From a virus: 64,000 bases of DNA. A model generated the notes under the pieces. It was given only the letters and a program-made list of their open reading frames with translations. It made no database searches and was not told the origin of the DNA. Shown piece by piece: positions 16,555-52,627 of this stretch (the first letter of the stretch is position 1; each line of letters opens with the position of its first letter). Location: the IMG/VR virus record IMGVR_UViG_3300043688_000007; one strand, written 5' to 3'. Position numbers and translations under genes: made by a program.

Positions 16555-17290
16555 CTCGCCTCCAGTACACTGAGTGGCCGTCGATATCGATGTATGGTTC
16601 CGTGATGTGCATCTTCTGCCGGTACTCCATGACCGCTTCCCTGCACATCGGGACATTCCAGTCGTCGATGATGCAGAAGCCGCCCGGCTGGAGCAGAGGG
16701 TAGAGCTTGTCGAGGGCGTCCATGGTCGAGACGTACAGGTCGGCGTCGAGCCGTAGCACCGCGAGCTTCTTGACTGGGCCGGGTAGGCTGTCCTTGAACC
16801 AGCCCGGTATGACTCCGACCTGATCATCAAGCAGGCCGTACAGCTCGAAGTTGTGCCTGACCTCGTCGAGCGGTACTGCTAGATGCGCCTGTTCTGGCTG
16901 AGCTATCAGTGCCCGATCGCCCTCGCTGATGCTAGTCGGCGGGAAGCCGTCGAACGAGTCAGCGAGCCAGACGGTACGGCCGAGCACGTTGTGAGCGCTT
17001 AGTACGCCACGCATGAAGATGCACGCACCTCCGCGCCAGACTCCGCACTCGATGAGGTCGCCACGAATGCGGTCTTCTATGACCTGCTCGATACACATCT
17101 GCAGGTTGTCGAGCCGCTTGAGCCCGATCATGGTGTGGGAGTACATTGGCCAGTCCCGCCCGTTCTCGCGCGTCGTCTCGCTGTAGACGCTGAGCTGGCG
17201 CCACGGGACAGGTATGGACGGGTCTTCGAACGTCATGCCGCAAACCGTGCGCTTGAGCAGTTCGAGATACCTGTCGAGGTTACCTCTCAT
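16547..17290 (-). CDS. TylF/MycF-family (macrocin-type) O-methyltransferase-like protein
   Basis: WPMYSHTMIGLKRLDNLQMCIEQVIEDRIRGDLIECGVWRGGACIFMRGVL...LRLDADLYVST matches the TylF-family pattern as I recall it. Confidence 0.75.
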   Translation of the reverse strand: MRGNLDRYLELLKRTVCGMTFEDPSIPVPWRQLSVYSETTRENGRDWPMYSHTMIGLKRLDNLQMCIEQVIEDRIRGDLIECGVWRGGACIFMRGVLSAHNVLGRTVWLADSFDGFPPTSISEGDRALIAQPEQAHLAVPLDEVRHNFELYGLLDDQVGVIPGWFKDSLPGPVKKLAVLRLDADLYVSTMDALDKLYPLLQPGGFCIIDDWNVPMCREAVMEYRQKMHITEPYIDIDGHSVYWRRDG

Positions 17291-21058: not shown

Positions 21059-21940
21059 TTACTTGCCTGCCTTCGCTGCCTTGCGATCCTCGGGCGCTGT
21101 GGCCTCGATGGACTCGATCATGTCTACGATTGCGTCGTAATAGCCGTCATCCTCCTCACCGTCTGGTATGGTCTCCCACCGAGGCAGGACGTTGAACCTG
21201 TCCTTGGCGAAGTACGGCGGGAACGTGTCGTTGTAGATGATGACCTCGCGCGGATCGTCCGGGCTGGTGCGCTTCTTGGCCTTCAGATACGACACGATGT
21301 CGAGGTCCGCGCAGAAGTTCTGCGCCATGGCGTAGTCCTTGCCGACGATGTTCGGCAGAACAAGGTCTTCTCCCTCTTCGTCTTCCTTGCGCATGGCCGT
21401 GGCGACGAAGAGAGTGTTGTACGGAGCGTCGACGAGGTGGTTGACGAACCGCAGGAACATACGCTGCCACTTCTGGTAGTCCTGCAGCTGCATGATGTCG
21501 ATGTCCCGCGCGGCGTTATCGTCATGCTGGATGCCGAGCCACCAGTACGCGAGCAGCTCCTGCATCTTCGTGATGCTGTCGATGACGAGCGTGTCTTTCG
21601 GCTTCAAGTTTGCATCGGCCCACTCGATGCTGGCCTCGACGTGATCCCAGTTGGGTGCTCGGAGTAGCTTGGCTCTGGCGCCGACTCGCCTTGCAGACAC
21701 GACGCCCTTCTCGGTACTGAGGATATAAGCGCGCGGGGCGAATGCCGATAGTACCGTCTTGCCGACTCCGCTGTTACCGTACAGACACCAGTTCCACGAC
21801 TCGTTGAAGTCGCTGAGTTCCTCGACCTTGACTGTGATTCTAGGCCGTTCACGCACCGCCCGCAGCTGCGTCACGTTATCGCTACTCTGCCTCGGCTTGC
21901 GCTGTGTTTGCCGTGGCGCTGACGGTCGCCTTGCTGCCAT
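21059..21940 (-). CDS. RecA-fold AAA ATPase (Sak4-like recombination protein)
   Basis: Walker A GNSGVGKT, DSITK Walker B-like region. Position between exonuclease and SSB. Confidence 0.7.
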   Translation of the reverse strand: MAARRPSAPRQTQRKPRQSSDNVTQLRAVRERPRITVKVEELSDFNESWNWCLYGNSGVGKTVLSAFAPRAYILSTEKGVVSARRVGARAKLLRAPNWDHVEASIEWADANLKPKDTLVIDSITKMQELLAYWWLGIQHDDNAARDIDIMQLQDYQKWQRMFLRFVNHLVDAPYNTLFVATAMRKEDEEGEDLVLPNIVGKDYAMAQNFCADLDIVSYLKAKKRTSPDDPREVIIYNDTFPPYFAKDRFNVLPRWETIPDGEEDDGYYDAIVDMIESIEATAPEDRKAAKAGK

Positions 21941-21955: not shown

Positions 21956-22945
21956 CTATTCTGCCGCCGACTTGCGGAGTGGTGACGGCTCGGATACTGT
22001 GTACATCGCTCTGAGGTATTCTTTCCATGCGCTACCTCCGCGCTCATGCATAGTGCACGGAGTGAAGAACGGGCAGTATGGGCACATGTCAGTCTCGACC
22101 TTGGTGACTGGTAGCTCGCCGTTGCGTACCTTGTTCATGATGTACACCTTGTCGGCAATCTTCCGCAGCTGGTTATTAACCTCGCGCGGAGTACGGTCAA
22201 CGAACTCACGGAGGAATCGCCTGGAGCCCTGGCTCTTGCTTACGCCACCGTCCTTGTTGAGATAGCGGCCCGCATAATCTCGCTCGCGAGTATCGGGCAT
22301 AGCCTTGCGCAGGAAGTTATACATGACGGCGTCGATCGCGTCCTTGCTGCCGATTATGCCCTGGTGCCTAAGTACAATTGTTGCGGCCGCGAAGTAGGAG
22401 CCCGCCTGATTGTCGAGCCCGAGGTGCATGGTCTTGATCGCCCCGGCCGTCTTGTGCTCTAGGAGGATCATCATGTTGTGAAAATGATGAATGCCGACGC
22501 CATCGAAGATACCGATGAAAATCGCAATGACTCTGCCATCGCGTATTATCTCTAGCTCAAACGGCTGCTCGATGGCTAGTATCTCTATGTCCTGATCTTG
22601 GCCGTATTCTTCGACATAGCCAATCAGCATGGCCTCGCCTAGCTCGCCAGCCTCCTCATAGACGGGCTGCTCAAACCAGTCCCGGTCATGGTCAGCGTAG
22701 TTAGCCTTGATGTACCTGATCTCGTTGCCGACCCATTCTCGCCATGTCTTGTCAGGACGCGGCCCACGCTCGAAACCCTCGTCATACCAGAGCGCGAGGG
22801 CCTCATGGATACCCTGCCCGAACCATAGCGCGTCCGCTGGCTTGGCCCTGGGACGGTAGCCATCAACGTACGCCCATTTCCAACGCCAGGGACAACGCGC
22901 AAACGTATTCAGCTCACTGTTGCTGACTATAGGTACATCACTCAA
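21956..22945 (-). CDS. PD-(D/E)XK exonuclease, Cas4/RecB-like with Fe-S cysteines
   Basis: N-terminal ELNTFARCPWRWKW plus C-terminal CPYCPFFTPC give the four-Cys pattern of Cas4/AddB-type nucleases. Confidence 0.8.
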   Translation of the reverse strand: MSDVPIVSNSELNTFARCPWRWKWAYVDGYRPRAKPADALWFGQGIHEALALWYDEGFERGPRPDKTWREWVGNEIRYIKANYADHDRDWFEQPVYEEAGELGEAMLIGYVEEYGQDQDIEILAIEQPFELEIIRDGRVIAIFIGIFDGVGIHHFHNMMILLEHKTAGAIKTMHLGLDNQAGSYFAAATIVLRHQGIIGSKDAIDAVMYNFLRKAMPDTRERDYAGRYLNKDGGVSKSQGSRRFLREFVDRTPREVNNQLRKIADKVYIMNKVRNGELPVTKVETDMCPYCPFFTPCTMHERGGSAWKEYLRAMYTVSEPSPLRKSAAE

Positions 22946-24959: not shown

Positions 24960-25018
24960 GGCATTGCGGCCCGCGCTAGCGGGTAGGTGTGCGCTTGGCG
25001 CGGGCCGCTGGACTACCG

Positions 25019-25711
25019 CTAGTAGGGAGCGGCACCGCCCGAGGCAGCGGCCGACTTGCCGCCGCGCCGCGAACGACGCGGGGGTGCAGGGGCCTCTTCC
25101 TCGATGTCGGCGTCGGATTCCGCGTTCCTCTTGGCGGCAGCCCCGCCTCGACGTGACCGGCGCGCGGGCTTGGCAGGAGCCTCTTCAGGCTCTTCCTCAA
25201 CCTCGACGTCAGCCTCGTCCTCGATGTCCTCGTCCTCTTCCTCGTCGATGTCCTCCGGCTCGGGCTCGGGCTTGGCCTTACGCCCGCCACGACGGCCGCT
25301 GCGCGGAGCCGGAGTCTCTTCGGCCTGTGCAGCCGCTCGCCTTGACGCCCGACCGGAGCGTCGCGGAGCTGGTGCCTCCTCTTCCTCATCCTCTTCCTCC
25401 GCGACCTTGTTCTTGCGGTTGCGGGGGTCCTCGGCCCAGAACTTCGACCGCTGGAAGTCCATCCGGATGGAGCCGCCGAGAGCAATCCCCTTGCGAAGGG
25501 ACTCCTCATCGAGGTCACCGATGTCGCCTTCGTACACCTCTTCGATGATGAAGTCGCCGAAGGCGTCCATCGTGCCGGTGATCTCCTTGTCGGCATACGC
25601 CGTGAAGTCCTTGCCCTCGCCGTTCTGGCTGGCGCGGGTTGCCTGCTCTTCCTCTTCGGGCTCGGGTGCTGAGCGGCGGGTGGACCTCGTGGCACGGGCT
25701 CGTGCTGGCAT
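25019..25711 (-). CDS. Paralog A of a two-member family (N-terminal conserved domain + alternating acidic/basic disordered tail)
   Basis: FTAYADKEITGTMDAFGDFIIEEVYEGDIGDLDEESLRKGIALGGSIRMDFQRSKFWAEDPRN is roughly 50% identical by eye to residues of 48198..48599. The tail has four [acidic run]-APAP-RR-rich units. Confidence 0.6.
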   Translation of the reverse strand: MPARARATRSTRRSAPEPEEEEQATRASQNGEGKDFTAYADKEITGTMDAFGDFIIEEVYEGDIGDLDEESLRKGIALGGSIRMDFQRSKFWAEDPRNRKNKVAEEEDEEEEAPAPRRSGRASRRAAAQAEETPAPRSGRRGGRKAKPEPEPEDIDEEEDEDIEDEADVEVEEEPEEAPAKPARRSRRGGAAAKRNAESDADIEEEAPAPPRRSRRGGKSAAASGGAAPY

Positions 25712-25750
25712 TTTCCCTCCTTGGTGGGTTTTCCTCTGCCTATAGTTCGG

Positions 25751-25783: not shown

Positions 25784-26047
25784 TCATTCGTAGAAATCTT
25801 CGACGGCGCGATGCAGGATGCGAGCTGCCTGCTTGAGGTAGCCCGGCTTGGGGACAGCGATCCCGGCCATCCAGCGTCCGACCGCCTCGTGGCTAGCGCC
25901 CATCACGTTCGCCAGCTTCTCGGGAGTCATCCCGTTGGCGTCGTGCTCGTCGAGCATGGCTTCGCAGAACGCGACCCATGAGAACGACTCGACGCCACCC
26001 TCATCGAGGTCGCGGTGCGCCCGCCTGGTTTGAGTAGGCACGGTCAT
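25784..26047 (-). CDS. Helix-turn-helix DNA-binding protein (XRE-like)
   Basis: MTPEKLANVMGASHEAVGRWMAG has an HTH pattern. 87 aa. Confidence 0.7.
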   Translation of the reverse strand: MTVPTQTRRAHRDLDEGGVESFSWVAFCEAMLDEHDANGMTPEKLANVMGASHEAVGRWMAGIAVPKPGYLKQAARILHRAVEDFYE

Positions 26048-26983: not shown

Positions 26984-27048
26984 CGATAGTTTAGATAGTA
27001 CGTTCGGCCGTTAGACCGTACCCGCCGCGCGGGTACTATCTTAACGAG
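26984..27048. promoter_or_regulatory. Inverted pair of 17-mer operator-like motifs
   Basis: cgatagtttagatagtac (26984-27001) and gtactatcttaacgag (27033-27048) face each other across ~31 bp, in the leader of the 26959 operon. Confidence 0.5.
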
Positions 27049-28373
27049 CTAATTATGGCGCGGTACTCGATACGCGGCTTGCCCTTCGCGCCGGTACGAA
27101 CCTTGCGGTGCATGATGAGTCCCTGCTCCTCAAGGTCGTCGAGGATCGGAGCCGACGGGGTGTTGTTGCTGAGTACGTCGGCAGTGATCTCCGCGCCAGA
27201 TGCCCAGGCATCGTCTTCGGCCTCAAGGTCGCCAGCAGCAACCTTCTCGTCGGCCTCGGTAGCGATCTGTAGCAGGAAGTCGTACACCTTGCCTTCCTGG
27301 AGCGGGCTGATACGCGGCTTGGGGTCGTCCGGCACCGAGAAGATACGCCGCGCGGAGAACATACAGAACTCCACCAGAGCCATCGCCGCCTTGACGTGAG
27401 GCCAGCCGATTTCCGGTGCGCAGTCCGCGAGTGCGTAGAGCAGAGCTAGCCTGATGACTTGAGTCTGCGCTCGGGCCGTGTACCGCGCGTAGTCCTCGCC
27501 TACAGCGTCGGCTATCTCTTCGATCTCAGGACCGATCTCATCCATCCAGCGATCCGCGACGTCATCGGCGATCGGGAACTTGGTCTTGGGAGCGATCCCG
27601 CGCATCTCCGCGAGGGCAGCGCTGATCGGGTCGGTGTTCAGCAGGATGCTATCCCACGCGTGGTTGATAGCTTCCTTGACCTCATCGGCCAGATGCTTCT
27701 TGCTGTTGTCGACCGCGAACGGATCGGTCCTGGTGACCCGCGCGGGCGCGGAGTAGAAATACAGCATCCGGCTTTCGAGCCCGCCCGTTAGCTTCTGTAG
27801 CGCGAGTAGCTCGCCCGGCGTGATCATGCCGACGAGGCTAATCATGTACTGGGTAGCGATCAACGGGGCCTGCTTGACCCTCTTGGCTGACAACGTCGAG
27901 CCGTCGTACGCGGTACGCATGCGCGGGCCGAACTTGCGCTGAGCCGACATGGCCGAAATGAACCTGCCGAACTCTTCCTCCAGGATCAGCATACGCGGGT
28001 CACCGTTTGGTGAGTCCGACACCTGCTCGATCATTGCCTCTGACGACTGGAGCCCGGACTCGATGTCATTCGCTGCCCACTCCGGTTCGGCTAGGCCCAG
28101 CAAAGCCTTGACTGCGTTCCATGCTGTACCCTTACGACCGCGAGCCCACTTGCCGACGATTAGCGTGAACAGCGCGCCAGGCTCGTCGTGCTCAAAGAAC
28201 TGGACGTGCGGCTGCCTGCCTATCGCGTTGCCGAAGCCCGTCATGAACATACCGAGGATCGAGGCCGGATCAGCGCCGGTCGTCTCGGAGAGCTTCAGCG
28301 CGACCTTGCCCGGAAGACCGTACAGCGCGTCGTCCGGGAGAACTGGCCTCAGAAGCTCGTCTCTAGTTGGCAT
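27036..28373 (-). CDS. DUF3987-like NTPase (helicase/loader-like), paralog 1
   Basis: IVGKWARGRKGTAW P-loop-like segment and LILEEEFGRF Walker-B-like segment. General resemblance to DUF3987 proteins and to 36395..37690. Confidence 0.55.
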   Translation of the reverse strand: MPTRDELLRPVLPDDALYGLPGKVALKLSETTGADPASILGMFMTGFGNAIGRQPHVQFFEHDEPGALFTLIVGKWARGRKGTAWNAVKALLGLAEPEWAANDIESGLQSSEAMIEQVSDSPNGDPRMLILEEEFGRFISAMSAQRKFGPRMRTAYDGSTLSAKRVKQAPLIATQYMISLVGMITPGELLALQKLTGGLESRMLYFYSAPARVTRTDPFAVDNSKKHLADEVKEAINHAWDSILLNTDPISAALAEMRGIAPKTKFPIADDVADRWMDEIGPEIEEIADAVGEDYARYTARAQTQVIRLALLYALADCAPEIGWPHVKAAMALVEFCMFSARRIFSVPDDPKPRISPLQEGKVYDFLLQIATEADEKVAAGDLEAEDDAWASGAEITADVLSNNTPSAPILDDLEEQGLIMHRKVRTGAKGKPRIEYRAIISSLR

Positions 28374-32300: not shown

Positions 32301-32435
32301 TCACCCCGCGATAGCTGCCGTGACCTGACAGATGCCCCAGCCGATGATTAGGCCGCGAGTGTTAGGGCTGACAGCGAACGCTAGGACGCCAGCCCAGTAG
32401 CCGATCATGGCCCACTTCTGACATCGCCAGTCCAT
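32301..32435 (-). CDS. Small membrane protein (44 aa)
   Basis: MDWRCQKWAMIGYWAGVLAFAVSPNTRGLIIGWGICQVTAAIAG. TGATG overlap with the upstream stop. Confidence 0.45.
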   Translation of the reverse strand: MDWRCQKWAMIGYWAGVLAFAVSPNTRGLIIGWGICQVTAAIAG

Positions 32436-33628
32436 CAGAACCTCGCACTTGCTATCTGGTGGTCGGTCATCTGCGTCTGGCGAACGTACTGGGCGAGGGC
32501 GTGCTGGAGAATCGACATGATGTCTTCGCACACACCGTAGTTCGTGTTGGGGATGGTGATGTGGACGGTAGCGAGCCCGGCCTGGTCTATGGTGACGCCG
32601 CCTTCGCCGGTGATGGCGATGGACTGCATGCCCATCTCTCGGGCGCGCTGGAGCGCTGCTATAATGTTGCGGCTCTCGCCGCTGACGGAGAACACGACGA
32701 GCACGTCATCCTTGTGGCCGAACTGTTCGAGCTGCCAACTGAAGATGCCGTTGTATCCGATGTCGTTTGCGAGCGCGGTAGTGAGAGCGTGGTTAGCGCA
32801 GAGGCTATGAACGTTGCGGTAGAGCGTGTCGACCGCGGCCATGTGCTTGGCGTGGTCGGTCGCCATGTGATCCGCGATGGCGGCGGCTCCACCGTTGCCG
32901 GCGGCGAAGACATAGCTGCCGTCGCTGTACGCCTTGTACAGGATGTCGGCGGCGTGCTCGACGAGCTTCTTGTCGACACGGCTAAGCGAGAGCGTAACCT
33001 CATCCGAGTAGTGGAGTAGGTAGCTGAGGATGCCTGAGTAGTTGTTGATCGGGAACTCGCTTGTGGACACGCCTGTGATCCTCTCGATGATATGAGTTGC
33101 GGCTTCGGCTAGGCTGTGGAAGTGGGGGACGACGGGGTGTAGCGCTGGGGGAGGTTCCGCGCCGAGGTATGCGCAACGCATGCCGCATCGGCGGGCCATC
33201 TCGACGTCAGTGATGCGGTCGCCTACCACCCAGCTGTCGTGCTGTTCTAGGTGCAGGTCCCTGATTGCGGCCAGGGCCATGCCCGGATTCGGTTTGTGGT
33301 CGTAGCTCTCCCGGGCGAATTCAGGATCGGAGCCTTCGGGGTGATGCGGGCTGAAGTAGAACGCATCAACGTGCGCTCCGTGTCTGGCTAGTTCTTGGTT
33401 GATGTAGCGGTTGACGGCATAGACCTCGTGGAGCGTGTAGAAGCCCCGCGCAACGCCACCTTGATTCGTGACGATAGCGACGGGGATGCCAGCCTGGTTG
33501 AAGCGACGGATCGCATCGATGGCGCCCGGTATGAATTGGACGCGCTCGATCCTGCCGACGTAGTGATAGTCCTCGACAATGGTGCCATCACGGTCGAGCA
33601 GGACGCCAGGCTTGCTACGAGTCGACAT
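32435..33628 (-). CDS. Bifunctional GmhB-like HAD phosphatase / GmhA-like SIS sedoheptulose-7-phosphate isomerase fusion
   Basis: N half: LLDRDGTIVED...VTNQGGVARG...HKPNPGM...VGDRITD (HAD-IIIA, heptose-1,7-bisphosphate phosphatase pattern). C half: VFAAGNGGAAAIADHMATD...VLVVFSVSGESRNIIAALQRAREMGMQSIAITG (SIS/GmhA pattern). Confidence 0.85.
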   Translation of the reverse strand: MSTRSKPGVLLDRDGTIVEDYHYVGRIERVQFIPGAIDAIRRFNQAGIPVAIVTNQGGVARGFYTLHEVYAVNRYINQELARHGAHVDAFYFSPHHPEGSDPEFARESYDHKPNPGMALAAIRDLHLEQHDSWVVGDRITDVEMARRCGMRCAYLGAEPPPALHPVVPHFHSLAEAATHIIERITGVSTSEFPINNYSGILSYLLHYSDEVTLSLSRVDKKLVEHAADILYKAYSDGSYVFAAGNGGAAAIADHMATDHAKHMAAVDTLYRNVHSLCANHALTTALANDIGYNGIFSWQLEQFGHKDDVLVVFSVSGESRNIIAALQRAREMGMQSIAITGEGGVTIDQAGLATVHITIPNTNYGVCEDIMSILQHALAQYVRQTQMTDHQIASARF

Positions 33629-35372: not shown

Positions 35373-36395
35373 GTGAATAGTCTCGGAGAAAGGACAGGCC
35401 CATACGGGAACACCGCCCTCAAATATATCAAGGCCGGATGGCCAGAGGCGATGCCCATATGGCAAGGCGGGGCCAAGGATAAGCAGCCGATGGTACGAGG
35501 GTATCACGGCCGTGATGGTACCTGGCCTGACGAAACAACAAGCACGATGTGGGCTGGCAGGTACGCCCGCGCGAACATAGCCCTGCGGCTGCCGCGGTGG
35601 ATCGTTGGGCTCGATGTCGACCACTACTCGGAGAAGTATGGCGGGGATTCCCTGGCCGAACTGCAGGACGAGCTGGGCCCGCTACCTGGGACGTTCGTCT
35701 CTACCTCGCGCGACGACGGCGTGAGCGGTATCAGGCTCTTCATGGTGCCTGGCGACTTCGCCGGGGCTGCGTGGCCGTCTCAGGCTTCGGTCGACATCGA
35801 CATGATTACCTGGTACGAGCGCTACGTGATCGTATCCGCGTCGGTGCACAAGAGTGGCCGGCCGTATCGCTGGCTGCTGCAAGATGAGTACGGCCACAGT
35901 ATGAAGCCGCTGCGCAATGATCGTGTCGTTCCTGCGCCGAGCGACATGGAGATGCTGCCGATCGAGTGGTGCGAGTACCTGACCGGGCTGGCCGGGAATG
36001 GTTCCGAGAAGTGGAATGATTCCAGTTTCGACGGCTCCGCGCGGCAATGGCTCATCGACTATGGCGGCGGCGAGCCGTGCAGGTACATCGAGGGCCGAGC
36101 CGTGCGTATGCTGGAGCGCATGAACGACGGTGGTTCGCTTCACGAAACTACGAAGCTTGCCGTGGCTCAGCTGGTGAAGGCTGCAGCCGAGGGGCATACC
36201 GGAATCAACTCTGCGCTCGCGCCGATACGTGAGCTGTTCATCTATAAGCTCGGCGCGCGGGGTGCGGGCGAGCGTAGGCGCGGGGAGGCCAAGGCAGTAC
36301 AGGAGTGGCGCGCCATGGTGAGCGGTGCCGTCGCGAAGTATGGGGGTGAGGTCGAGGACGAGGACACTGTCTGCAACGAGCTGGCGGGCTTCTGA
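35373..36395 (+). CDS. Bifunctional DNA primase/polymerase (PrimPol, N-terminal Prim-Pol domain)
   Basis: GTG start. ALKYIKAGWPEAMPI...ANIALRLPRWIVGLDVDHY...GGDSLAELQDELGPLPGTFVSTSR...SGIRLF is the typical Prim-Pol pattern. Confidence 0.8.
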   Translation: MNSLGERTGPYGNTALKYIKAGWPEAMPIWQGGAKDKQPMVRGYHGRDGTWPDETTSTMWAGRYARANIALRLPRWIVGLDVDHYSEKYGGDSLAELQDELGPLPGTFVSTSRDDGVSGIRLFMVPGDFAGAAWPSQASVDIDMITWYERYVIVSASVHKSGRPYRWLLQDEYGHSMKPLRNDRVVPAPSDMEMLPIEWCEYLTGLAGNGSEKWNDSSFDGSARQWLIDYGGGEPCRYIEGRAVRMLERMNDGGSLHETTKLAVAQLVKAAAEGHTGINSALAPIRELFIYKLGARGAGERRRGEAKAVQEWRAMVSGAVAKYGGEVEDEDTVCNELAGF

Positions 36396-37690
36396 TGGCG
36401 GCGGACGAGGAGTTTTGGGGCAGCTGCAAGGAGCTACGCCTGATACGTCAGTTCGCGCACTATCATGTAGGCAGTCCGTGGTCATACCTCGGATCGTGTA
36501 TGGCGCGCGCAGTTACTGCTGTGCCGTATAATGTGGTGATACCTGACATCATCGGCAACTACGTGTCGACTGGGATATACATAGCACTGGTAGGCGATCC
36601 CGGTCACGGGAAGGGCAGTTCTGACGGTGCGGCTGCCCGGCTGATGCCGTGCGATATATACTCATCAAAGCTAGGCAGCGGCGAGGGTATCACGCATCAG
36701 TTCGCCTACCGCGACAAGGCTGATGGGGAGCTACAGTGGCGTGAGCGCTCTATCCTGTTCGAGTCATCAGAGGCTGAGACTATGCGCGCCCTAGCTGGGC
36801 GCAAGGACACGACGCTGATGGGAGAGCTACGTAGCGCGTGGATGGGAGAGTCACTAGGCTTCGCGTACTCTGACGTCAGGAAGCGTCTAGTGCTTCCCTC
36901 ACTTAGCTACCGGCTTAGTGTCCTGGCATCATTCACTCCGAGTGTTAGCGATGTGCTTCTGGATGGGGTATATGAGGGCACGCCACAACGGTTCCTCTAT
37001 CTGCCAGTGAGTGAGCCCGAGCTACCCGACGAGGATGCCATCAAAAGGCCGAGGACGCAGCTACACCTGAATGTTCCTCCAGTTAGTGAACTAGACCTGG
37101 TCCAGGTTGAGGTGCCAAGCTGGGTGCGGTATGAGCTACGAGAGGATCACAGGGCAAAGGTGCGCCGTGAGTTCGGGCAGATGAGTGAGGGTGAACTTCT
37201 CGACACTCATATCAATCTGGTACGGCTGAAGGCTGCTTTCGCCCTTGGTCTAGTAACCAACCCCCATCGCCATGATTACTACATCTCTGAGGAGGACTGG
37301 GAGCTATCTGGGTTTGTTATGAACAAATCGCGCGAGACGCGTAATAGGATGATCGAAGCGGCAGAATCCGCGCGGCTGTCAAAGAACAAGAAGGAGGGCA
37401 AAGACCTCGGCGTTAGGTATGAGGCCGCTGATGAGCGTCGCAGGCTAGGTCCAGCAATGGAGCGTATCGAGGTGATACTCAGGGCCGCGAGAAAAGACGG
37501 CAATCCCATAATGAGTCCGGGTCACATTCGCCAGAAAATGAGTCCCAATCAGCGCAAGCTATTTGACGAGGCAGTCCAGCCTCTTATCAGAGACGGAAAG
37601 GTGGAAGAAGTGAAGGGAGTCATTGCTACTTCGGCGCAGGGCAGGCGGGCTCTTAGCGTTAGATTCCGGTGGGCGAAGCGAGCGATCTAA
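36395..37690 (+). CDS. DUF3987-like NTPase (primase-associated helicase/loader-like), paralog 2
   Basis: TGATG coupling to PrimPol. IALVGDPGHGKGSS P-loop. ILFESSEAE Walker-B-like segment. Confidence 0.6.
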   Translation: MAADEEFWGSCKELRLIRQFAHYHVGSPWSYLGSCMARAVTAVPYNVVIPDIIGNYVSTGIYIALVGDPGHGKGSSDGAAARLMPCDIYSSKLGSGEGITHQFAYRDKADGELQWRERSILFESSEAETMRALAGRKDTTLMGELRSAWMGESLGFAYSDVRKRLVLPSLSYRLSVLASFTPSVSDVLLDGVYEGTPQRFLYLPVSEPELPDEDAIKRPRTQLHLNVPPVSELDLVQVEVPSWVRYELREDHRAKVRREFGQMSEGELLDTHINLVRLKAAFALGLVTNPHRHDYYISEEDWELSGFVMNKSRETRNRMIEAAESARLSKNKKEGKDLGVRYEAADERRRLGPAMERIEVILRAARKDGNPIMSPGHIRQKMSPNQRKLFDEAVQPLIRDGKVEEVKGVIATSAQGRRALSVRFRWAKRAI

Positions 37691-37977
37691 CCCATGGCAG
37701 CAAATCTAACCCTAAATCTAACCCACCTAACCCTTTCGACCTGCGGCGATACCGCTAAAATCGGTGGGTTAGATGGGTTAGATGGCATCGGGAGAGAAAA
37801 AGGGAAAAAGTATCAAAGAGAAAACTACAGGGAGAAGATAGCAAACATAGTCTGACCAGGTATTATATATAATATACAAACAAAAAGTGTTCACGTATTA
37901 TAAAGAGTTTGATATGTATTTCGAGAGTCGATTTTTTCCCGGATACGATCTAACCCATCTAACCCATCTAACCCACC
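37685..37977. repeat. Ori-like locus: ATCTAACCC iterons in direct and inverted orientation flanking a very AT-rich core
   Basis: Direct copies at 37685, 37704, 37716 (plus acctaaccc at 37725). Inverted gggttagat x2 at 37766-37783. Three tandem copies at 37948-37974. The core includes tattatatataatatacaaacaaaaag. Confidence 0.65.
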
Positions 37978-39082: not shown

Positions 39083-39174
39083 GTGACAGAGTTCTCTTCA
39101 TACTTGCAGCAGTGCTGGCAGTGGCAATTATCGTGATCATCGCCTTGTTCTATCGCGATATCAACGTCGTGTAG
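39079..39174 (+). CDS. 31-aa hydrophobic peptide
   Basis: MSDRVLFILAAVLAVAIIVIIALFYRDINVV. ATGA overlap with the HNH stop. Confidence 0.4.
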   Translation: MSDRVLFILAAVLAVAIIVIIALFYRDINVV

Positions 39175-39191
39175 TCGACCGTAGTCGACCC
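39169..39191 (+). repeat. Two tandem GTAGTCGACC decamers (same motif as the 49-kb array)
   Basis: gtGTAGTCGACCGTAGTCGACCc, ~115 bp upstream of the DUF2637/Lsr2-like gene. Confidence 0.6.
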
Positions 39192-39306
39192 TCGTCGAGC
39201 TGCAGGGCCCATCTCCGCGACTCGCCGGTGCGACCTGGGGTTTATCGCTTTTCGGCCGTCCCAGCGTTAGGCTTAAACCCTGTTCGTACCAACGAAAGGC
39301 AGGAAA

Positions 39307-40146
39307 GTGGACAGAGCGCGAAAGATAGTGGCTGCAGTAACTGGAGGGTCGCTGTGGCTGGTCATCCTCGTGCCCGTGCTAGCTATCAGCTGGGTCGGGT
39401 TCTACACGATTGCCCGGGCTGTGGGCGTGCCGCCGCTATTCGCTATGGGCATGTCAGCAGCCTTCGACGGTGTAGCGATCTTCGCTGCACGGACGGGCCT
39501 AAAGCACAGGCGCAAGGGCTTCAGCGGTTACCTTGCACGTATCACCGTCCTCATGTTCGTAGCGCTCGGCGTGTTCGTGCAGAGCTTCCACAGCGATACG
39601 ACCACGTGGGTGCACAACCACGCCTGGGTAGTCTGGGCAGTCGCCCCGATCGCTGCAGCGATATGCTACGAGCTGCACCTCGGCTGGATTCATCGCAAGC
39701 AACTCATCAAGCACGGCTATACCCATCCCTCTGCAAAGAGCGGCTACGGCCCTGCAACATGGCTCATGATCGGCGGTACGCTCCGTGAGTATCGCAACGG
39801 CCTGCGCGCGCGGAGGGACTTCATCTCTGCAACGAACCTTGCACGGTTCCGCATCGAAGAGGATGAGCAGCCCGTGATACCCCCTGCAGTGCCGCCGAAG
39901 CCTGCGCTGAAGCCGCGTCCTCGTCCAAGGCCGCAGCCGAAACCAGAGCTGCAGGGACCTCCCGGTCCACGGCTCGTACATTCCACAAGGCCAGCTTCCA
40001 AGCGTCGTGCAGTTACCGAGAACATGAAGATCGCTGCATGGTGCCGCGAGCAGGGCATCCAACTGGGCTACCGAGATCGAGTGCCTGCAGAGGGACTGCG
40101 CCGTTACCGTGCAGCACACCCTTCAACCAGTCGTGCAGCAGCCTGA
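39307..40146 (+). CDS. DUF2637-like multi-pass membrane protein fused to Lsr2-type C-terminal DNA-binding domain
   Basis: GTG start. 4-5 TM spans in the first ~170 aa. Pro-rich linker. C terminus KIAAWCREQGIQLGYRDRVPAEGLRRYRAAH aligns with Lsr2 [29 protein letters not shown]. Confidence 0.7.
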   Translation: MDRARKIVAAVTGGSLWLVILVPVLAISWVGFYTIARAVGVPPLFAMGMSAAFDGVAIFAARTGLKHRRKGFSGYLARITVLMFVALGVFVQSFHSDTTTWVHNHAWVVWAVAPIAAAICYELHLGWIHRKQLIKHGYTHPSAKSGYGPATWLMIGGTLREYRNGLRARRDFISATNLARFRIEEDEQPVIPPAVPPKPALKPRPRPRPQPKPELQGPPGPRLVHSTRPASKRRAVTENMKIAAWCREQGIQLGYRDRVPAEGLRRYRAAHPSTSRAAA

Positions 40147-47038: not shown

Positions 47039-47371
47039 CTATCCGACGAGGGCAGGCACGCGAACGCCGCCCCGCTTCTGCATCATCGCGGCTACCCGCG
47101 TCCGAATATCTGCAACCGTTAGGTCGCCGTCGTCGCTACGCGCGAGATTGCAATCTCGGCACGCAGGTACGATGTTGTCCCTTCGGTAGCTACCGCCCGG
47201 GACGATCCGGTCAGCCTCAACCGTCGCCTCGGTTAGCTCGGTACCACACTCCCAGTAGCACGCGACTTTGACGCCGTCGCCGCCGAACCCCGACGCGGGG
47301 GATACCAACCACTCCCGCCTACGCCGACGGTCGGCGCTTGACCCTCGCCTATCGCCTCCGGCCCTAGCCAT
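47039..47371 (-). CDS. HNH endonuclease (small)
   Basis: CYWECGTELTEATVEADRIVPGGSYRRDNIVPACRDCNLARSD. First gene of the leftward early unit. Confidence 0.7.
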   Translation of the reverse strand: MARAGGDRRGSSADRRRRREWLVSPASGFGGDGVKVACYWECGTELTEATVEADRIVPGGSYRRDNIVPACRDCNLARSDDGDLTVADIRTRVAAMMQKRGGVRVPALVG

Positions 47372-47405
47372 CCCGCTACCTCCCGCGCCTAGTTGACGCT
47401 TCGAA

Positions 47406-47457
47406 CTTTCGTACTCCGTACGAAAGTACTAACGTACGAAACCCCGGAAAAATTCCC
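47406..47457 (-). promoter_or_regulatory. Class II 32-nt promoter-like block plus 9-bp inverted repeat, start of the leftward early transcription unit
   Basis: On the - strand: GGGAATTTTTCCGGGGTTTCGTACGTTAGTAC, followed by the palindrome ctttcgtac-tcc-gtacgaaag (47406-47426). Confidence 0.5.
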
Positions 47458-47639
47458 GAAATTTGCTTAGTTCGCGTAACGATTTAGTAACGGCCAAAAC
47501 CAACCTCGCCGGGCGCGAAAAGGATCAATCGCTCGATACCGAACGACATGATGCCCGGGGCCCAGCTAGGCTCGTGCTCACAGCTATGCGACGCGCGGAT
47601 GTGCTCGACCTAGGTCGGCGTTCGTGATGCCACGAGGGT

Positions 47640-48060
47640 CAAAGCGGTCGAGTGTAGTCGAGTACCAACTAGGCCGGGCCCGGCTAACCTACAAGTCCTA
47701 CCGGATCACTAGGCAATGATCTCGAAACCGTCAATCCCGACCGTCAAGCTAGGGAATGCACTTCCCCGACCGCGACCGGTCGAGTGTAGTCGACCTCCCG
47801 GCCCGGGGCCTCATGTAGTCGACCTTACTCGACTACAACCCTCGCTCGGGATCGAAGCGTCAACCGGTCGACTAGGGTCGACTACATGACCGCCCGGCCC
47901 GGGCGAAAGACGTCAATCCCGACCGGTTCGGTAGACTACATTCCCGACCGGTTCGGTAGGTTTGACGTTCGGGCCCCGGACGCGCGCCGCGCCGCCGAGA
48001 TGTAGTCGACCCTAGTTGACCCTAGGCTTGTGTAGTCTAGGGTAGTCGGGGGACCTAACT
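47640..48060. repeat. Dispersed GTAGTCGAC motifs in both orientations, paired with GGCCCGGGCC-type GC palindromes and other short direct repeats
   Basis: gtgtagtcga at 47652, 47784, 47814 and 48001. Inverted gtcgactac at 47829 and 47877. gtcaatcccgaccg x2. tcccgaccggttcggtag x2. ccgggcccgg-like palindromes after several copies. Confidence 0.7.
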
Positions 48061-48197
48061 TAAAAAAGTTCGTCTTTTCGGCCGAAACCGGGAACTTACG
48101 GCGGAAGGGAAGCGTTATAGGTAGTAGTTCGGTTAGTTCGGTTCGGGAGGTTAGCGCGAGCGGTTCGCGCGCCCGTACCGTGGAAGGTAGGTTTACG

Positions 48198-48599
48198 ATG
48201 AAAGCTCTTACGGAGTACGCGCGAGAGTCCGCTAGCCCGACGATGGAAGCGTTTGCCGACTTCCTTATCTCGGAGGTCTACGGCGGGACCCTCCCGAGGG
48301 GGATTGACGAAAAGGCGTTCCGCGAGGGGGTCCGCCTCGGCGGCTCGACGCGCGGTTTCTTCCAGAAGTCGGAGTACTGGAAGAACGACGCGCGTAACTA
48401 CCTCGCGAACGTCGACGCGCGACGCGCGGAGCGGGCGGCAGAGCGCGCCGAGAAGGCTAAGGCGTCGGCCGAGAAGGCGCGCCTACGGGCCGAGAAGGCG
48501 ATCGCGGACGCCGAGGCGATCGCCGAGGCGGCCCGCGCGAAGCTCGCCGCGCTAGCGGACGACGCGGACGACGCGGACGACGCGGAGGACGCCGCGTAG
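48198..48599 (+). CDS. Paralog B of the 25019..25711 family (conserved N domain + Ala/Glu/Arg coiled coil + poly-Asp tail)
   Basis: Start MKALTEYARE after GGAAGG. LTEYARESASPTMEAFADFLISEVYGGTLPRGIDEKAFREGVRLGGSTRGFFQKSEYWKNDARN. It is the only gene inside the repeat hub. Confidence 0.6.
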   Translation: MKALTEYARESASPTMEAFADFLISEVYGGTLPRGIDEKAFREGVRLGGSTRGFFQKSEYWKNDARNYLANVDARRAERAAERAEKAKASAEKARLRAEKAIADAEAIAEAARAKLAALADDADDADDAEDAA

Positions 48600-48615
48600 T
48601 TCGAACGTTCGAACG

Positions 48616-48643
48616 AAACCCGGCCGGGAAACCGGCCGGGTTT
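48616..48643 (+). terminator. Rho-independent-type terminator
   Basis: aaacccggccgg-gaaa-ccggccgggttt, followed by a T-rich stretch. Confidence 0.7.
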
Positions 48644-48700
48644 TCGTATTTTCGGACGCCCGGATTTTCGAATATTAGTACGTATCGCCTAACGATATAT

Positions 48701-48957
48701 CGCGTTCGTTCGTACGTTCGTTCGATCGCTCGTTCGTTCGAACCCTCCCGGATCGCGGCCGGATTTTCGAACGTTCGTTCGTTCGCTCGTTCGTTCGAAT
48801 CGTCCTCGGAATCTGGGCGCGGTTCGAACGTTCGTTCGTTCGCTCGTTCGTTCGAACCGGCCCCGGGGAAAGTCCATCTTTTCGAACGGCCGTTCGATCG
48901 AACGTACGAACGTATCGTAGCACGATATACCGCGTCCGTTCGAACGTTCGTTCTAGC
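48701..48957. repeat. (CGTT)n / TTCGAA-rich blocks
   Basis: Three ~35-43-bp blocks (48701-48743, 48766-48800, 48823-48857). The last two are identical over ~34 nt: ttcgaacgttcgttcgttcgctcgttcgttcgaa. Flanked by CGTATCG..CGATATA.CGCG direct repeats. Confidence 0.7.
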
Positions 48958-49437
48958 GTACGGTCGACTAGGGTCAACTCTAGCCGGGTACGGTCGAGCG
49001 TAGTCGACTAGGGTCAACTACGCTCGGGTAGGGTAGAGTGTAGTCGAGTAGGTACTACCCTAGTTGACGCTAGACGGGTGTAGTCGACTAGGTACTACCC
49101 TAGTTGACGCTAGACGGGTGTAGTCGACTAGGTACTACCCTAGTTGAGACTAGACGGGTGTAGCCGAGGCTAGACGGGCGTAGGTGACTATAGGCGGGTG
49201 TAGTCGACCCCGGGCGAGTGTAGTTGACCTTACCCTAGTGTACTCTAGCCTAGTCGAGTGTAGTCGACCCCAGGCGGGTGTAGTCGACCCTAGCCGACCA
49301 TAGTTGAGGCTAGACGAGTGTAGTCGACCCTAGCCGGGCGCGCTTGACCCTAGTCGAGTGTAGTCGACCCCGGTCGAGTGTAGTTGACCCCACTCGACTA
49401 CAGTCGAGCCCACTCGGTGGGGGTCGACCCCCTTGCA
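48958..49437. repeat. Helically phased array of about 45 TAGTCGAC-type decamers (with 20-bp and 40-bp super-periods)
   Basis: Nearly every 10th base from 48961 to 49430 starts a decamer such as tagtcgaccc, tagttgacgc or tagacgggtg. GTGTAGT[C/T]GAC at 49038, 49078, 49118, 49198, 49218, 49258, 49278, 49318, 49358 and 49378. Confidence 0.9.
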
Positions 49438-49740
49438 CCCGCGATGCCAGACCGGCGAAGCTGCCGCTGTGGCAAATCGGAAGCAATTGCCATGCCATGG
49501 TGATGCACTTCCCAGATGCCCCAGCGCGGGGGTATACTCGGTACTAGGCACCATCACGCATTCTGATGGGCGGGCGGCATTGTGATATATGTGTCTGCGA
49601 GACTCAGGTGGTGGTGCCCTAGCGCGCAAGCGAAGCGCGGGGTATAATCGCTTCATGCCACCATCATCAGCAGCGGGGCCAAGCCCAGCAGCACAGGGCG
49701 AAGTGGTAGGAGACCGGCTGGCGACAGCGTAGACAGATCA

Positions 49741-50430
49741 TCACACATACTCCCTCAGCTGGAGCCCGAGATGGAACGTATACAGCGGAGGGATGGCTTG
49801 CGACATTTCATCGGTCGACATCCAGTCGATGCCCATCGCGTGGGCCCATATCTCGCGCTGCGTCTGGCCCTTGAAGTGTGAGCCATCACCGCGGCCATAC
49901 ACGTACACGATGCCGCGTCGGACCTCACTGCCCCGTCCGTTCGGCCGCTGGATGTAGCGGAGGTCCAGGTCTTGCCACGTATGCCAGCAAGGCACTCCCT
50001 CCAGCTCGCAGTTGCTCTCGAACAGCCTGTGCCGTTGGACGCGGAGCCCGAGCCCACTCCCGCAAATCTGCACCGGCTTGATCATCGGAGCGCCGGGCAC
50101 GTTCTCAATGATGTACGGCAGCCCAGTCTCCTCAAACACCCAGCGCGTGTATTCAACCAGCTTCGGGTGCGCCTTCGTGGTGAGCGTCTTCGAGATGCTG
50201 TAGCCCTTGCACGGAGGGCTCCCAGCGATGGCGTCGAAGTTGCGCCCGATCCGCGCAATCTGCTTGTCGCTGAGCTTCGTGATGTCATACTGGTAGAATC
50301 GCTTGGGCCAAGGGAAGCTGGGCTGCGGCTCGATGTCGGACCCCCACACCTCGAATCCTGCCATATGGTAGCCCATCGAGGTGCCACCTGCCTTACAGCA
50401 CCAGTCGAGCAATTTAAGCCGTCGCCTCAT
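49741..50430 (-). CDS. Compact DNA (cytosine-5)-methyltransferase
   Basis: Motif I-like CCKAGGTSMGY, motif IV GSPPCKGYS, motif VI IIENVPG, motif VIII RVQRHRLF, motif X-like MSQAIPP. Only 229 aa, so the target-recognition domain is very short. Confidence 0.8.
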   Translation of the reverse strand: MRRRLKLLDWCCKAGGTSMGYHMAGFEVWGSDIEPQPSFPWPKRFYQYDITKLSDKQIARIGRNFDAIAGSPPCKGYSISKTLTTKAHPKLVEYTRWVFEETGLPYIIENVPGAPMIKPVQICGSGLGLRVQRHRLFESNCELEGVPCWHTWQDLDLRYIQRPNGRGSEVRRGIVYVYGRGDGSHFKGQTQREIWAHAMGIDWMSTDEMSQAIPPLYTFHLGLQLREYV

Positions 50431-50470: not shown

Positions 50471-50755
50471 ATGCCACCTTCACAAGCAGCAGGCCCGGGG
50501 CCATCTCTGCCTCAGATCAACGCCATGATCGCCGCCGCGCGGAGCTACATCCATTTCACTACGCCACCTGCGAGCGGACACAATGATCACCAGGTCCTAT
50601 TCTGGGCCGTCGGCAGTGACAATGCCACGGTGGTTCCGTATATCGCCAGCACTGATGATGCCAAGACGGTCATCCCGGCCAATTCCGTCTCTGCCGACTA
50701 CATCATCCTCAACCCATACAGCGAGTGCGAAATCTGCGTTAGGCCACCACAATGA
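50471..50755 (+). CDS. Hypothetical protein (94 aa)
   Basis: ATG 6 nt after the TATACT box. ATGA overlap with the next gene. Confidence 0.5.
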   Translation: MPPSQAAGPGPSLPQINAMIAAARSYIHFTTPPASGHNDHQVLFWAVGSDNATVVPYIASTDDAKTVIPANSVSADYIILNPYSECEICVRPPQ

Positions 50756-51333
50756 CGCCATGGCTCGATATAGCCAATAACGCTATCGACGCATACCGAG
50801 CTCAGCAGCAGGCTCCCGAGCTAGCTGTGCTACTCGCGTTCATAGACTCTACAGAGCCCAGGTCCGTTCTCGAAATTGGATCAGCAGACGGAGGGCTCGC
50901 CTGGGCCATCATGCAGATTGCGTCGGTATCAATGCTCGTAACGATCGACAAGACGGTAACTAGAGGGCATCAGCAAGTATGCGATCTTTTCCCCGCTCGG
51001 ATTCTGGCTATCTATGGAGACTCCACGGACGAGAAGATCATCCACCATGCAATGGCAGAGGGCGATTACGATGTCGTGATCATCGACGGAGGTCATGATT
51101 GGAGGACGGCATCATCAGACTGGAATAGCTACGCATCAATGGCCAAGTCAGGAGGGCTGGTAGTAGTCCATGACACGCAAGGGTATCACAACTTCAGGGA
51201 CTTTGATGTTCCTACGATGTGGGCGACTGTCAGGAAGCGAGCTAAGTCAGTGGACCTGGTATCAATGCCGGGGGTCGAAGCAGGCACCGGCATTGTATGG
51301 GCTGGTGAAGGCGAATGGTGGGATGTTCTATGA
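50752..51333 (+). CDS. Class I SAM-dependent methyltransferase (O-methyltransferase-like)
   Basis: SVLEIGSADGGLAWAI...VTIDK...IYGDSTD...YDVVIIDGGHDW pattern. Confidence 0.75.
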   Translation: MTPWLDIANNAIDAYRAQQQAPELAVLLAFIDSTEPRSVLEIGSADGGLAWAIMQIASVSMLVTIDKTVTRGHQQVCDLFPARILAIYGDSTDEKIIHHAMAEGDYDVVIIDGGHDWRTASSDWNSYASMAKSGGLVVVHDTQGYHNFRDFDVPTMWATVRKRAKSVDLVSMPGVEAGTGIVWAGEGEWWDVL

Positions 51334-51941
51334 GCAAGCATGAAGGCGTCATGATCGGCTACGTCAGGCCATTGATGGTTCATGGCGAATTCATGGAGGC
51401 TCTCTTCGTTGAGGCCAACCGAGCTAAGGCTAAGGTCCACGGCATGTGGTCCGAACCATACGTGGACGCCGCGCGGAACAGGGTTGTGGAGTTCTTCATG
51501 GCCAGCGACTGCGAATGGTTCCTCTCGGTCGATACCGACATCATCCTGCCTGACCTAGTGGTTCAGAGGCTAATGGCGCGGAGGCAGTCTCTTGTAGGCG
51601 CGCTCATCTATGTAGATGCAGACCCCATTTTCCCGCAGATATACAGCAAGATAGCTGACTTCGGATTCGGTGGGATGGGCCAGTACGTTGTCAATGAGGC
51701 GTGGAACCCCGGCGAGCTGGTCAAGGCTGACGCGACCGGCGCGGGGTGTCTGCTTATCCATCGCGAGGTATTCGACAAGATACCGGAGGGTTCGCAGTAT
51801 CGCTGGTTCGAGCACGAACGTGAAGGCCAGCAGATGTTTGGCGAAGACTTCACGTTCTGCCGAAGAGCGCGCCAGGTCGGCTTCCAGCTATACATAGACA
51901 CGGCGGTACATGCGAAGCATATCAAGACCAGGTATATCTAG
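51330..51941 (+). CDS. Family-2-like glycosyltransferase
   Basis: Start MSKHEG in ATGA overlap. FLSVDTDII (DxD) and GEDFTFCRRA (ED) motifs. Confidence 0.7.
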   Translation: MSKHEGVMIGYVRPLMVHGEFMEALFVEANRAKAKVHGMWSEPYVDAARNRVVEFFMASDCEWFLSVDTDIILPDLVVQRLMARRQSLVGALIYVDADPIFPQIYSKIADFGFGGMGQYVVNEAWNPGELVKADATGAGCLLIHREVFDKIPEGSQYRWFEHEREGQQMFGEDFTFCRRARQVGFQLYIDTAVHAKHIKTRYI

Positions 51942-52008: not shown

Positions 52009-52108
52009 ACCCGTGTGCTGGTCCAGAAAACAGTGGTCCCGTTGCCCCCAAGCTTCAGACCGACTCTTGCCCTGGGCCAGCACACGGAGAGGAAGCCGGA
52101 GTAATTCC

Positions 52109-52627
52109 ATGCCAGCGCACACCAAACCTCCTGCCCGCCGTACGGGGGCAGGAACTGGACGAGGCGACGACCCACGCTTTATCAGGGTCAGTACCGGTGT
52201 TGCGTCTGACAAGAGCTTCCCAATACCCACTGCGGACCCGAAGTGGCACCCGAAGGCCAGGAGCTGGTACAACTCGCTCAGGCGTTCTGGCCACTCGCAG
52301 TGGTTTGAGCCGTCGGACTGGGCAACAGCTGTCGCTGCGGCTGACGCCTATAATGTGTTCCTACGGTCGTACAATGCTAGTATTCTAGCCCAGTTCGTTC
52401 GGCTCAGTGAGCGTCTTGGAGCGACACTCACTGATCGCAAGCGCAGCCGTATTGAGCTGGAGGAGCCCGTGCTGGAAGATGAGGATGAAAAAGCAGCTGA
52501 CGAGGCAGTCCAAGGATGGCAAGGCCGTCTGCATTCTGTCCAGTTAGCTATTACCGACCAGGTTGGCGAAACAGCCTGGCGTAAGGTGGTAGACGGGCAT
52601 GTCCAGCATTACAGCAGCAATTGTTAG
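52109..52627 (+). CDS. Terminase small subunit (actinophage type)
   Basis: Internal ATG after GGAGAGGAAG. KWHPKARSWYNSLRRSGHSQWFEPSDWATAV...LGATLTDRKRSRIELE pattern. Position before terL. Confidence 0.6.
   Translation: MPAHTKPPARRTGAGTGRGDDPRFIRVSTGVASDKSFPIPTADPKWHPKARSWYNSLRRSGHSQWFEPSDWATAVAAADAYNVFLRSYNASILAQFVRLSERLGATLTDRKRSRIELEEPVLEDEDEKAADEAVQGWQGRLHSVQLAITDQVGETAWRKVVDGHVQHYSSNC

Follow-up and report, generated by a model that had tools for sequence, protein, structure and literature searches.

A paralogue pair sharing a small helical domain in an uncultured actinophage, with one copy encoded in a phased repeat hub next to an inferred cos site

Iteron and centromere systems, such as P1 RepA with incC/incA and ParR with parC, carry tandem repeats of 10-11 or 20 bp. 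In E. coli, SSB ends in the acidic tip DDDIPF. The last six residues of the HK620 SSB, NDYPPF, are needed for the stimulation of Sak4 (PMC5928155). At phage genome ends, lambda cosB spans ~120 bp, contains three R sites, and lies on the same side of cos as the terminase genes (PMC4669245), and the lambdoid phages LLS and MD8 carry right-end, top-strand Chi clusters (PMC12315714). The locus described here resembles each of these systems in part. It was studied in a stretch of viral DNA of 64,000 nucleotides (IMG/VR record IMGVR_UViG_3300043688_000007; hereafter the window), in which two genes 23 kb apart encode products with a common domain, and one of these genes is embedded in a hub of repeats. 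Coordinates of the genes and sites are collected in Table 1.

Table 1. Positions in the window of the two paralogous genes, their parts, and the sites around them
Feature	Position	Strand	Description and basis
353-aa open reading frame (putative SSB)	19979-21040		Right after the AAA_24 gene; acidic/Arg-rich tail as in the long type; ends in REDPPF
Long-type paralogue gene	25019..25711	-	230 aa; open reading frame, BLASTP, PHROG matches
Long copy, basic/acidic N-terminal leader		-	Ahead of the shared domain
Long copy, shared domain	25400-25612	-	Residues 34-104
Long copy, disordered tail		-	Acidic blocks plus four P-R-R-S-(G)-R-R-G-G-like Arg motifs; ends in -GAAPY
Loose GTAGTCGA / TCGAC cluster	47646..48049	.	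Direct and inverted copies; e.g. TGTAGTCGA-N6-TCGACTACA at 47814-47837
Promoter-proximal block GTAGTCGGGGGACCTAACTTAAAAAAG (putative)	48042..48068	+	Last array unit plus an A-tract resembling an UP element
TANNNT-like -10 (putative)	near 48116-48121		~50 nt past the GTAGTCGGGGGACCTAACTTAAAAAAG block; read from sequence
GGAAGG ribosome-binding site	48182-48187		Read from sequence
Short-type paralogue gene	48198..48599	+	133 aa; open reading frame and translation, homologues, AF2
Short copy, shared helical domain	48198-48413	+	Residues 1-72; open reading frame translation
Short copy, charged Ala/Arg/Glu/Lys helix		+	Residues 73-117
Short copy, acidic tail		+	Residues 118-133; ends in -DAA
Intrinsic terminator	48615..48644	+	13-bp G+C-rich stem, then a T-run; directly after the short gene; terminator scan
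Second repeat family, CGTTCG-type	48697..48960	.	57-bp period (TTCGAACGTTCGTTCGTTCGCTCGTTCGTTCGAA), with flanking inverted copies
Phased array	48958..49437	+	48 consecutive 10-bp units without an indel; consensus (G/C)(T/C)(C/G)TAGTCGA
Inferred cos overhang CGGCGAAGCTG	49453..49463	.	11 nt; right end 49452, left end 49464; contig ends

The short and the long product were shown to come from real genes and to be true paralogues. The sequence-only reading had put their shared domain at ~65 residues with about half of the positions identical; BLASTP bore this out, aligning residues 2-72 of the short protein with residues 34-103 of the long protein over 71 residues with 32/71 identities (45%), 63% positives, one gap, and an E value of 4e-18. 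The tails differ as it had claimed, since the translations gave an Ala/Arg/Glu/Lys helix for the short copy, followed by the C-terminal end DDADDADDAEDAA, and acidic blocks alternating with Arg-rich blocks for the long copy. Its description of a two-member family was right within the window, where a family HMM run over all six-frame open reading frames returned exactly two matches (E=1.7e-28 and 2.6e-26), but too narrow beyond it, as the shared domain family comprises >200 sequence clusters, all of them metagenomic. The likely start of the short gene is ATG 48198 and not GTG 48180, because the N-termini of the homologues are conserved (MKDL.., MSKDY..) and GGAAGG lies ahead of it. Furthermore, the domain of the short copy was 64% identical to that of the long-type protein P0001, versus 45% for the long copy of its own genome, and a duplication within the clade of the short copy is therefore suggested.

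A word-indexed search with both domains retrieved 16 close relatives, and an exhaustive HMM search of 1.84 billion representatives at a cut-off of E<=0.001 matched 134. Seven of these (P0017, P0088, P0091, P0099, P0103, P0124, and P0132) were dismissed as repetitive-protein artefacts; they are large and repetitive, match many unrelated Pfam families, and contain zero significant stretches. A broader second profile search collected 160 proteins. The family falls into two architectures with mutually exclusive C-terminal motifs. The short type (n=20) consists of the N-terminal domain, an invariant RNYLANV, an Ala/Lys/Arg/Glu helix, and an acidic tail, and all 20 proteins end in -AA. The long type (n=119) carries the domain followed by alternating acidic and Arg-rich blocks; its last residue is aromatic in 115 proteins, and the end reads x-P-[F/Y/W] in 96, with D/E just ahead in 66 of these 96, most commonly as EAPY or EAPF. 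The four exceptions to the aromatic end are short products of 103-152 aa with tails that stop early, and are most likely truncated. Supportively, an aromatic last residue was found in 104 of 107 proteins of the second search set. Some long-type proteins possess an extra N-terminal domain of ~100 residues. The long type is the widespread form and the short type is confined to one clade, and both keep the same invariant residues: R, Q, and S are nearly invariant throughout the family, and R, Q, S, and W in the closer subfamily. A domain with these same invariant residues occurs in >100 other phage lineages.

Profiles of PHROG 20596 and 34140 matched 97/138 and 93/138 family members, with best E values of 7e-16 and 2e-19, respectively. 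The long copy matched 34140 at E=7.5e-6 and 20596 at E=0.0042; the short copy had no direct match to either profile, and is linked to them only via the shared domain. Both PHROGs are phage families of unknown function for which neither a coiled-helix/-AA architecture nor a genome-end position has been described. The family is one of uncharacterised actinophage proteins, in which the long copy belongs to an existing PHROG family and the short copy represents a variant whose architecture and genomic setting are both new. A tblastn search of 50,697 phage records with five members (both window copies, P0147, P0037, and P0229) gave no match, a scan of GTDB genomes for prophage or host copies gave one partial hit to a non-member, and the syntenic region of Gordonia phage Bonum contained no family member.

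The domain had not been recognised in the sequence-only reading, and searches of the family against Pfam and NCBIfam agreed with this, with no match and in particular none to an SSB or bZIP family of Pfam; a profile search of PDB sequences gave no match either. AF2 produced confident models. For the short copy, modelled from a 17-sequence alignment (pLDDT 86.8), short helices were predicted in residues 2-62 and one long helix over residues 72-132; for the domain alone, modelled from 72 diverse sequences (pLDDT 90.6, pTM 0.72), helices were predicted at 17-29 and 40-59. The shared domain is all-helical in both models, with no beta strand predicted. Foldseek comparison of both models with the PDB gave nothing below E=1 and no DNA-binding fold, and a BFVD fold search gave only weak hits, at ~30% identity, to uncharacterised Arthrobacter and Gordonia phage proteins. 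A helix-turn-helix was hinted at in the first AF2 model, but the model from the deeper alignment has one continuous helix there. A bZIP-like reading of RNYLANV(D/E)A(R/N)R and the helix behind it was likewise set aside, given the lack of a bZIP match in Pfam and a region that is not strongly basic. In composition, the domain is acidic across the family, with a median pI of 4.8 and a median net charge of -4; it carries -6 in the long copy and 0 in the short copy, whose whole protein has a pI of 4.95. The mean net charge of the domain is -2.2 in the short type versus -5.2 in the long type (p=2e-4, indicative only, as the sequences are related).

The window is a circular permutation of the ~70-kb linear genome of an uncultured soil actinophage. 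Its TerL is closest to that of Corynebacterium phage Juicebox, at 50% identity, and >2,000 actinophage records match it. A minus-strand block from ~12 to 34 kb forms the replication/recombination module, with genes for a DnaE-like polymerase (12332-15511), ThyX, an AAA_24 ATPase (21059-21940), a PD-(D/E)XK nuclease (21956-22945), endonuclease VII, and a DUF3987 protein (27036-28373). Further on, at 35-38 kb, come the genes for a Prim-Pol (35373-36395) and another DUF3987 protein (36395-37690), and from 52 kb onwards those for TerS, TerL, and the portal. Scans of the window for Rfam families and tRNAs gave no hit.

The termini were derived from contig ends in independent samples and divergent relatives. 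The right end is marked by contigs L009, L011, and L014/L044, which terminate at the homologue of 49452 (..CAGAC), and the left end by contigs L067, L070, L071, L077, and L078, which begin at the homologue of 49464; the starts of L068 and L069 lie 7 and 6 nt before it, respectively. Furthermore, a 70,172-bp contig has both of its ends at this point, where they abut, and in the window, L006, and L073 the sequence runs on across the junction. From these ends we infer a cos site with an 11-nt overhang. With cos at this position, the hub (47400-49452) is therefore the right-terminal 2 kb and the short gene the last gene, transcribed towards the genome end with its stop codon 853 bp from the terminus. 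The hub sits between an HNH endonuclease gene (47039-47371) and cos, across which a C5-methylase gene follows (49741-50430), and TerS (52013-52627) lies 2.5 kb from cos. This genome-end position had been missed in the sequence-only reading. As the hub lies next to cos, terminase and end-processing factors come in as rival binders of the arrays. In the TerL relatives Juicebox and MalagasyRose, the right end carries an HNH gene; the arrays and the family gene are absent from it.

The placement of the short gene between two repeat arrays, as first described, held for the loose cluster upstream and the strict array downstream, and also in 11/12 related loci. Exact GTAGTCGAC occurs in 15 copies in the window versus 0.65 expected, 12 of them in the hub region, and is strongly biased in strand, with 8:0 on the + strand in the strict array and 11:1 on the top strand near the right end. 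The strict array covers 480 bp and has a strong GTGTAGTCGA unit every 20 bp, TRF periods of 10, 20, and 40, and a last unit that stops 15 bp short of the right genome end. Its 10-bp register has been kept through sequence drift, which argues for selection on helical phasing and for a binder on one DNA face. On the terminase side of cos, TAGTCGA occurs at background (0.14 per kb), as two isolated copies with no cluster.

The same hub layout was found in L001 and L044, which carry shorter versions of the CGTTCG-type repeats, and GTAGTCGA-rich flanks surround the gene in 11 of the 12 short-type loci. L015 and L016 keep the gene, its promoter block, and ~six GTAGTCGA sites, with other tandem repeats in place of the long TAGTCGA array. 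Co-occurrence of the domain with the arrays was thus found in part: it stood for repeat-rich flanks of the short-type loci, but L015 and L016 largely lack the array, and the long-type loci have no TAGTCGA cluster in flanks of up to 10 kb. The array pattern and the promoter block turned up again in IMG/VR only in one contig, which also has the short gene, and other matches to either were rejected as low-GC chance matches; megablast of the hub against deposited phages gave no match. Since all related sequences come from one clade, the conserved co-location does not separate function from shared ancestry.

Within the hub, the short gene has the make-up of a transcription unit of its own, and no further gene follows it before the inferred end of the linear genome. 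The GTAGTCGGGGGACCTAACTTAAAAAAG block upstream, near-invariant in 10/11 aligned loci, has one array unit abutting its A-tract, and its sequence points to a promoter function. A small GC hairpin is conserved in the leader of the gene, and hairpins equivalent to the terminator follow the gene in L001 and L044.

The long copy lies in a different setting. In the window it is flanked upstream by the genes of a DUF3987 protein and an 87-aa HTH protein (25784-26047), and on its downstream side by those of the PD-(D/E)XK and AAA_24 proteins. The order helicase, long type, PD-(D/E)XK, AAA_24 was found in the window, in L002/L003, and in L043, and the helicase that heads it in the latter two, unrelated, contig families is an SNF2 protein. 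The nuclease is a Cas4-like exonuclease and the AAA_24 protein a Sak4-like ATPase. The long type belongs to the recombination module. The putative SSB of this module is the 353-aa protein ending in ..EDPPF, which is a better SSB candidate than the long copy. Because the REDPPF reading frame adjoins AAA_24, and given the precedent of the SSB tip and Sak4, the long type looks like a second tip-bearing accessory protein of the module.

We tentatively favour, at somewhat less than an even chance, the reading that the shared domain docks a conserved partner and that the short copy holds, blocks, or relocates this partner at the free right end. The domain would be a docking module for one conserved ligand, because both types, and lineages with as well as without arrays, have the same invariant residues. 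The ligand would most likely be a recombination or replication protein and not the TAGTCGA repeats; a protein partner is somewhat likelier than the repeats because the domain is acidic, has no match to a DNA-binding fold, and is linked to peptide-tip tails. The long copy may act as an accessory hub, with its Arg motifs holding DNA and its SSB-like tip recruiting proteins that recognise such tips. In the short copy the docking domain is retained but the Arg hooks and the tip are both missing, so that at the right genome end, where the DNA is exposed, the same partner would be held, blocked, or relocated by it. The docking role is suggested by composition, synteny, and terminal motifs. Several observations speak against it. 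The near-invariant R, Q, and S, with W in the subfamily, could equally contact nucleic acid; a small gene between iterated sites, one of them at its promoter, is the arrangement classically seen for DNA-binding proteins that regulate themselves; the domain is less acidic in the short type than in the long type; and the invariant RNYLANV of the short type, which runs into a basic helix, might serve to read DNA.

A serious rival, somewhat less probable than the docking reading, builds on the proposal of the sequence-only reading that this copy is the prime candidate for the array-binding or nucleating protein: the short copy would be a sequence-specific binder that polymerises along the TAGTCGA arrays in 20-bp units and a 10-bp register, forming a filament or wrap at the genome end and autoregulating its own promoter. 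At the DNA level, the gene lies between arrays in 11/12 loci, an array unit stands directly upstream of the conserved A-tract and -10, and the 48 units stay in perfect 10-bp register despite drift, as for a one-face binder; however, L015 and L016 keep the gene with other tandem repeats and ~six GTAGTCGA sites, and the core of the repeat does not change although the proteins have diverged to ~50% identity, so that co-variation is absent. At the protein level, the predicted 60-residue helix would suit oligomerisation, RNYLANV and the basic helix after it are invariant in the short type, and its domain is the less acidic one (-2.2 vs -5.2). Against such a binder speak the whole-protein pI of 4.95, a domain of net charge 0 within an acidic family, the lack of any DNA-binding domain among matches in Pfam, NCBIfam, or the PDB fold search, and the continuous helix that replaced the hinted helix-turn-helix in the deeper AF2 model. 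The invariant residues are, moreover, common to >100 lineages in which the inspected flanks have no arrays and the genes lie in recombination modules.

A less probable reading, which we consider unlikely, separates the arrays from the gene: the arrays would be cos/end-processing or transcription-control sites for TerS, for a phage or host factor, or orientation-specific, Chi-like signals for a host nuclease that processes ends, and the short gene would be autonomous and moron-like and act elsewhere. Its product could for instance be an acidic decoy, an anti-nuclease, or a short-lived regulator removed via its -AA end, by analogy with ssrA-type tags. The acidic tail and universal -AA end of the short type, and the gene's own promoter-like block and strong terminator, fit such a product, but no match to an anti-defence or DNA-mimic family was found. 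As for the arrays, the hub abuts cos, the HNH gene beside cos and TerS 2.5 kb off mark a cos packaging module, and the 11:1 top-strand bias of GTAGTCGAC near the right end is like that of lambdoid Chi clusters (PMC12315714). They lie, however, on the non-terminase side of cos, unlike lambda cosB (PMC4669245), Chi-like signals need no strict 10-bp phasing, and the phage has its own recombination module.

More improbable still is a telomere-like module, in which the short protein would polymerise on the 48-unit array and, via the shared domain, recruit or exclude the exonuclease, Sak4, and SSB at the free right end, which is exposed during packaging and, by analogy with lambda, would enter the cell first. 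If true, the short protein would represent a novel class of DNA-end binders, and its fold would likewise be new. That the similarity between the two products is chance or low-complexity noise, or that one reading frame is no gene, is refuted: both proteins do have low-complexity tails and other-frame open reading frames do overlap within 24976-25745, but the BLASTP alignment lies in the non-repetitive domain (E=4e-18), the homologue sets show both frames conserved as protein across dozens to hundreds of metagenomic homologues, and the six-frame HMM search picked out these two frames.

If the favoured docking reading is right and the partner is a recombination or replication protein, the family would be an unnoticed, widespread part of actinophage Cas4-exonuclease/Sak4/SSB modules, in which an SSB-like recruiting tip is carried on a non-OB-fold core. 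The short variant is a natural experiment, with the same domain, another tail, and a position at the genome terminus, and offers a testable handle on the exposed cos end. The 480-bp array, with its exact 10-bp phasing and its distance of 15 bp from cos, offers an uncommon and clearly delimited target in the search for a binder, and the inferred cos fixes the genome ends and the gene order of an uncultured phage group.

Compared with the RepA and ParR systems, the locus is alike in having a small gene beside or between phased direct repeats, with a repeat at the promoter. It differs in that the short protein has no match to a winged-helix or ribbon-helix-helix fold by Pfam, Foldseek, or AF2, that the adjacent genes encode no ParM, ParA, or TubZ-type NTPase and no Rep-sized protein, and that it occupies a phage genome terminus and not a plasmid origin or centromere. 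With lambda cos (cosQ-cosN-cosB, with the R sites of TerS) it has in common that binding-like repeats adjoin cos and that HNH and terminase genes are near, whereas 48 units over 480 bp are present here, on the side of cos away from TerS. Like the lambdoid Chi clusters, it concentrates a short motif at the right end with a strong top-strand bias; those clusters, in contrast, are dispersed over kilobases and the units here are tandem and phased, the motif is not known to be a Chi, and the phage has its own recombination module. The comparison with SSB concerns the protein family. Its core is a small all-helical domain and not an OB fold, without a Pfam or NCBIfam SSB match, and the short copy lacks the aromatic tip, ending in ..EDAA where the long copy ends in ..GGAAPY. 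The likeness to SSB lies in the long type, the disordered acidic tail of which ends in x-P-[F/Y/W] and the gene of which stands in a module with a Sak4-like ATPase.

The genome was delimited by the ends of independent contigs: stops fall at the homologue of position 49452 and starts at that of 49464. The 11 nt in between were taken as the overhang of a putative cohesive-end site (cos). The window is therefore circularly permuted relative to a linear genome of about 70 kb. [quoted passage not shown] On the right side of cos, promoter elements lie at a distance of 70-190 nt, and joining of the cohesive ends would place the array just upstream of this promoter.

Features of the window and of related contigs (positions are those of the window unless a contig is named)
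Feature	Location	Strand	Description
Inferred cos	49453-49463		11-nt overhang CGGCGAAGCTG; from ends of independent contigs
Phased array	48958-49437		48 consecutive 10-bp units, register perfect; consensus ..TAGTCGA
Promoter elements	49533-49538; 49643-49660; starts of L067-L078		
Second repeat family	48697-48960		CGTTCG-rich 57-bp units and inverted copies
Candidate hairpin	48154-48172		Small, GC-rich, GCGCGA-GCGGT-TCGCGC; short-gene leader
Non-coding block	47555-47650; L001 5440-5520; L044 9440-9520		About 70 nt, CCCAGCTAG..GCGCGGATGTGC..GAGGTACAA
Replacement repeats	L016 1-1560 (and L015)		GCTAACGA units; 16-bp unit, 5 copies; GGGCCGCGCGGGCGAGGG, 4 copies
Tandem repeat	39171-39198		GTAGTCGACC, 2.8 copies; outside hub
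Three small tandem arrays	37702-37975		ATCTAACCC-type 9-12-bp units amid very small ORFs
353-aa ORF	19979-21040	-	Directly after the Sak4-like AAA_24 gene
Sugar- and methyl-transfer genes	16547-17290; 32435-33628; 50752-51941		

Within the hub, the repeat-rich terminal 2 kb around the short gene (the 133-aa ORF), the CGTTCG-rich repeats are placed between the terminator of this gene and the phased array, and shorter versions of them are present in related hubs. The non-coding block is kept in three hubs (the window and the related contigs L001 and L044) that differ elsewhere. The leader hairpin is also retained in relatives, and compensatory changes in two of its five pairs support it weakly. 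In the related contigs L016 and L015 the short gene is retained and the long TAGTCGA array is replaced by other tandem repeats; GACCTAAT-like elements come after each of the GATGTAGTCGAC sites left there.

Elsewhere in the window, the GTAGTCGACC repeat lies upstream of an ORF (39307-40146) that carries DUF2637 and weakly matches the Lsr2 DNA-binding domain. The sugar- and methyl-transfer set comprises TylF-like and CmcI-like methyltransferases, a SIS+HAD fusion and a glycosyltransferase-like ORF. The window also encodes two DUF3987 proteins and, separately, a Prim-Pol, and the combination may be a sign that DNA or virions are modified. The 353-aa ORF, which probably encodes a divergent phage SSB, returned no match in Pfam, PHROG or NCBIfam; its product has an N-terminal domain of ~170 aa, then a long acidic and Arg-rich tail, and ends in REDPPF, a tip of the SSB type.
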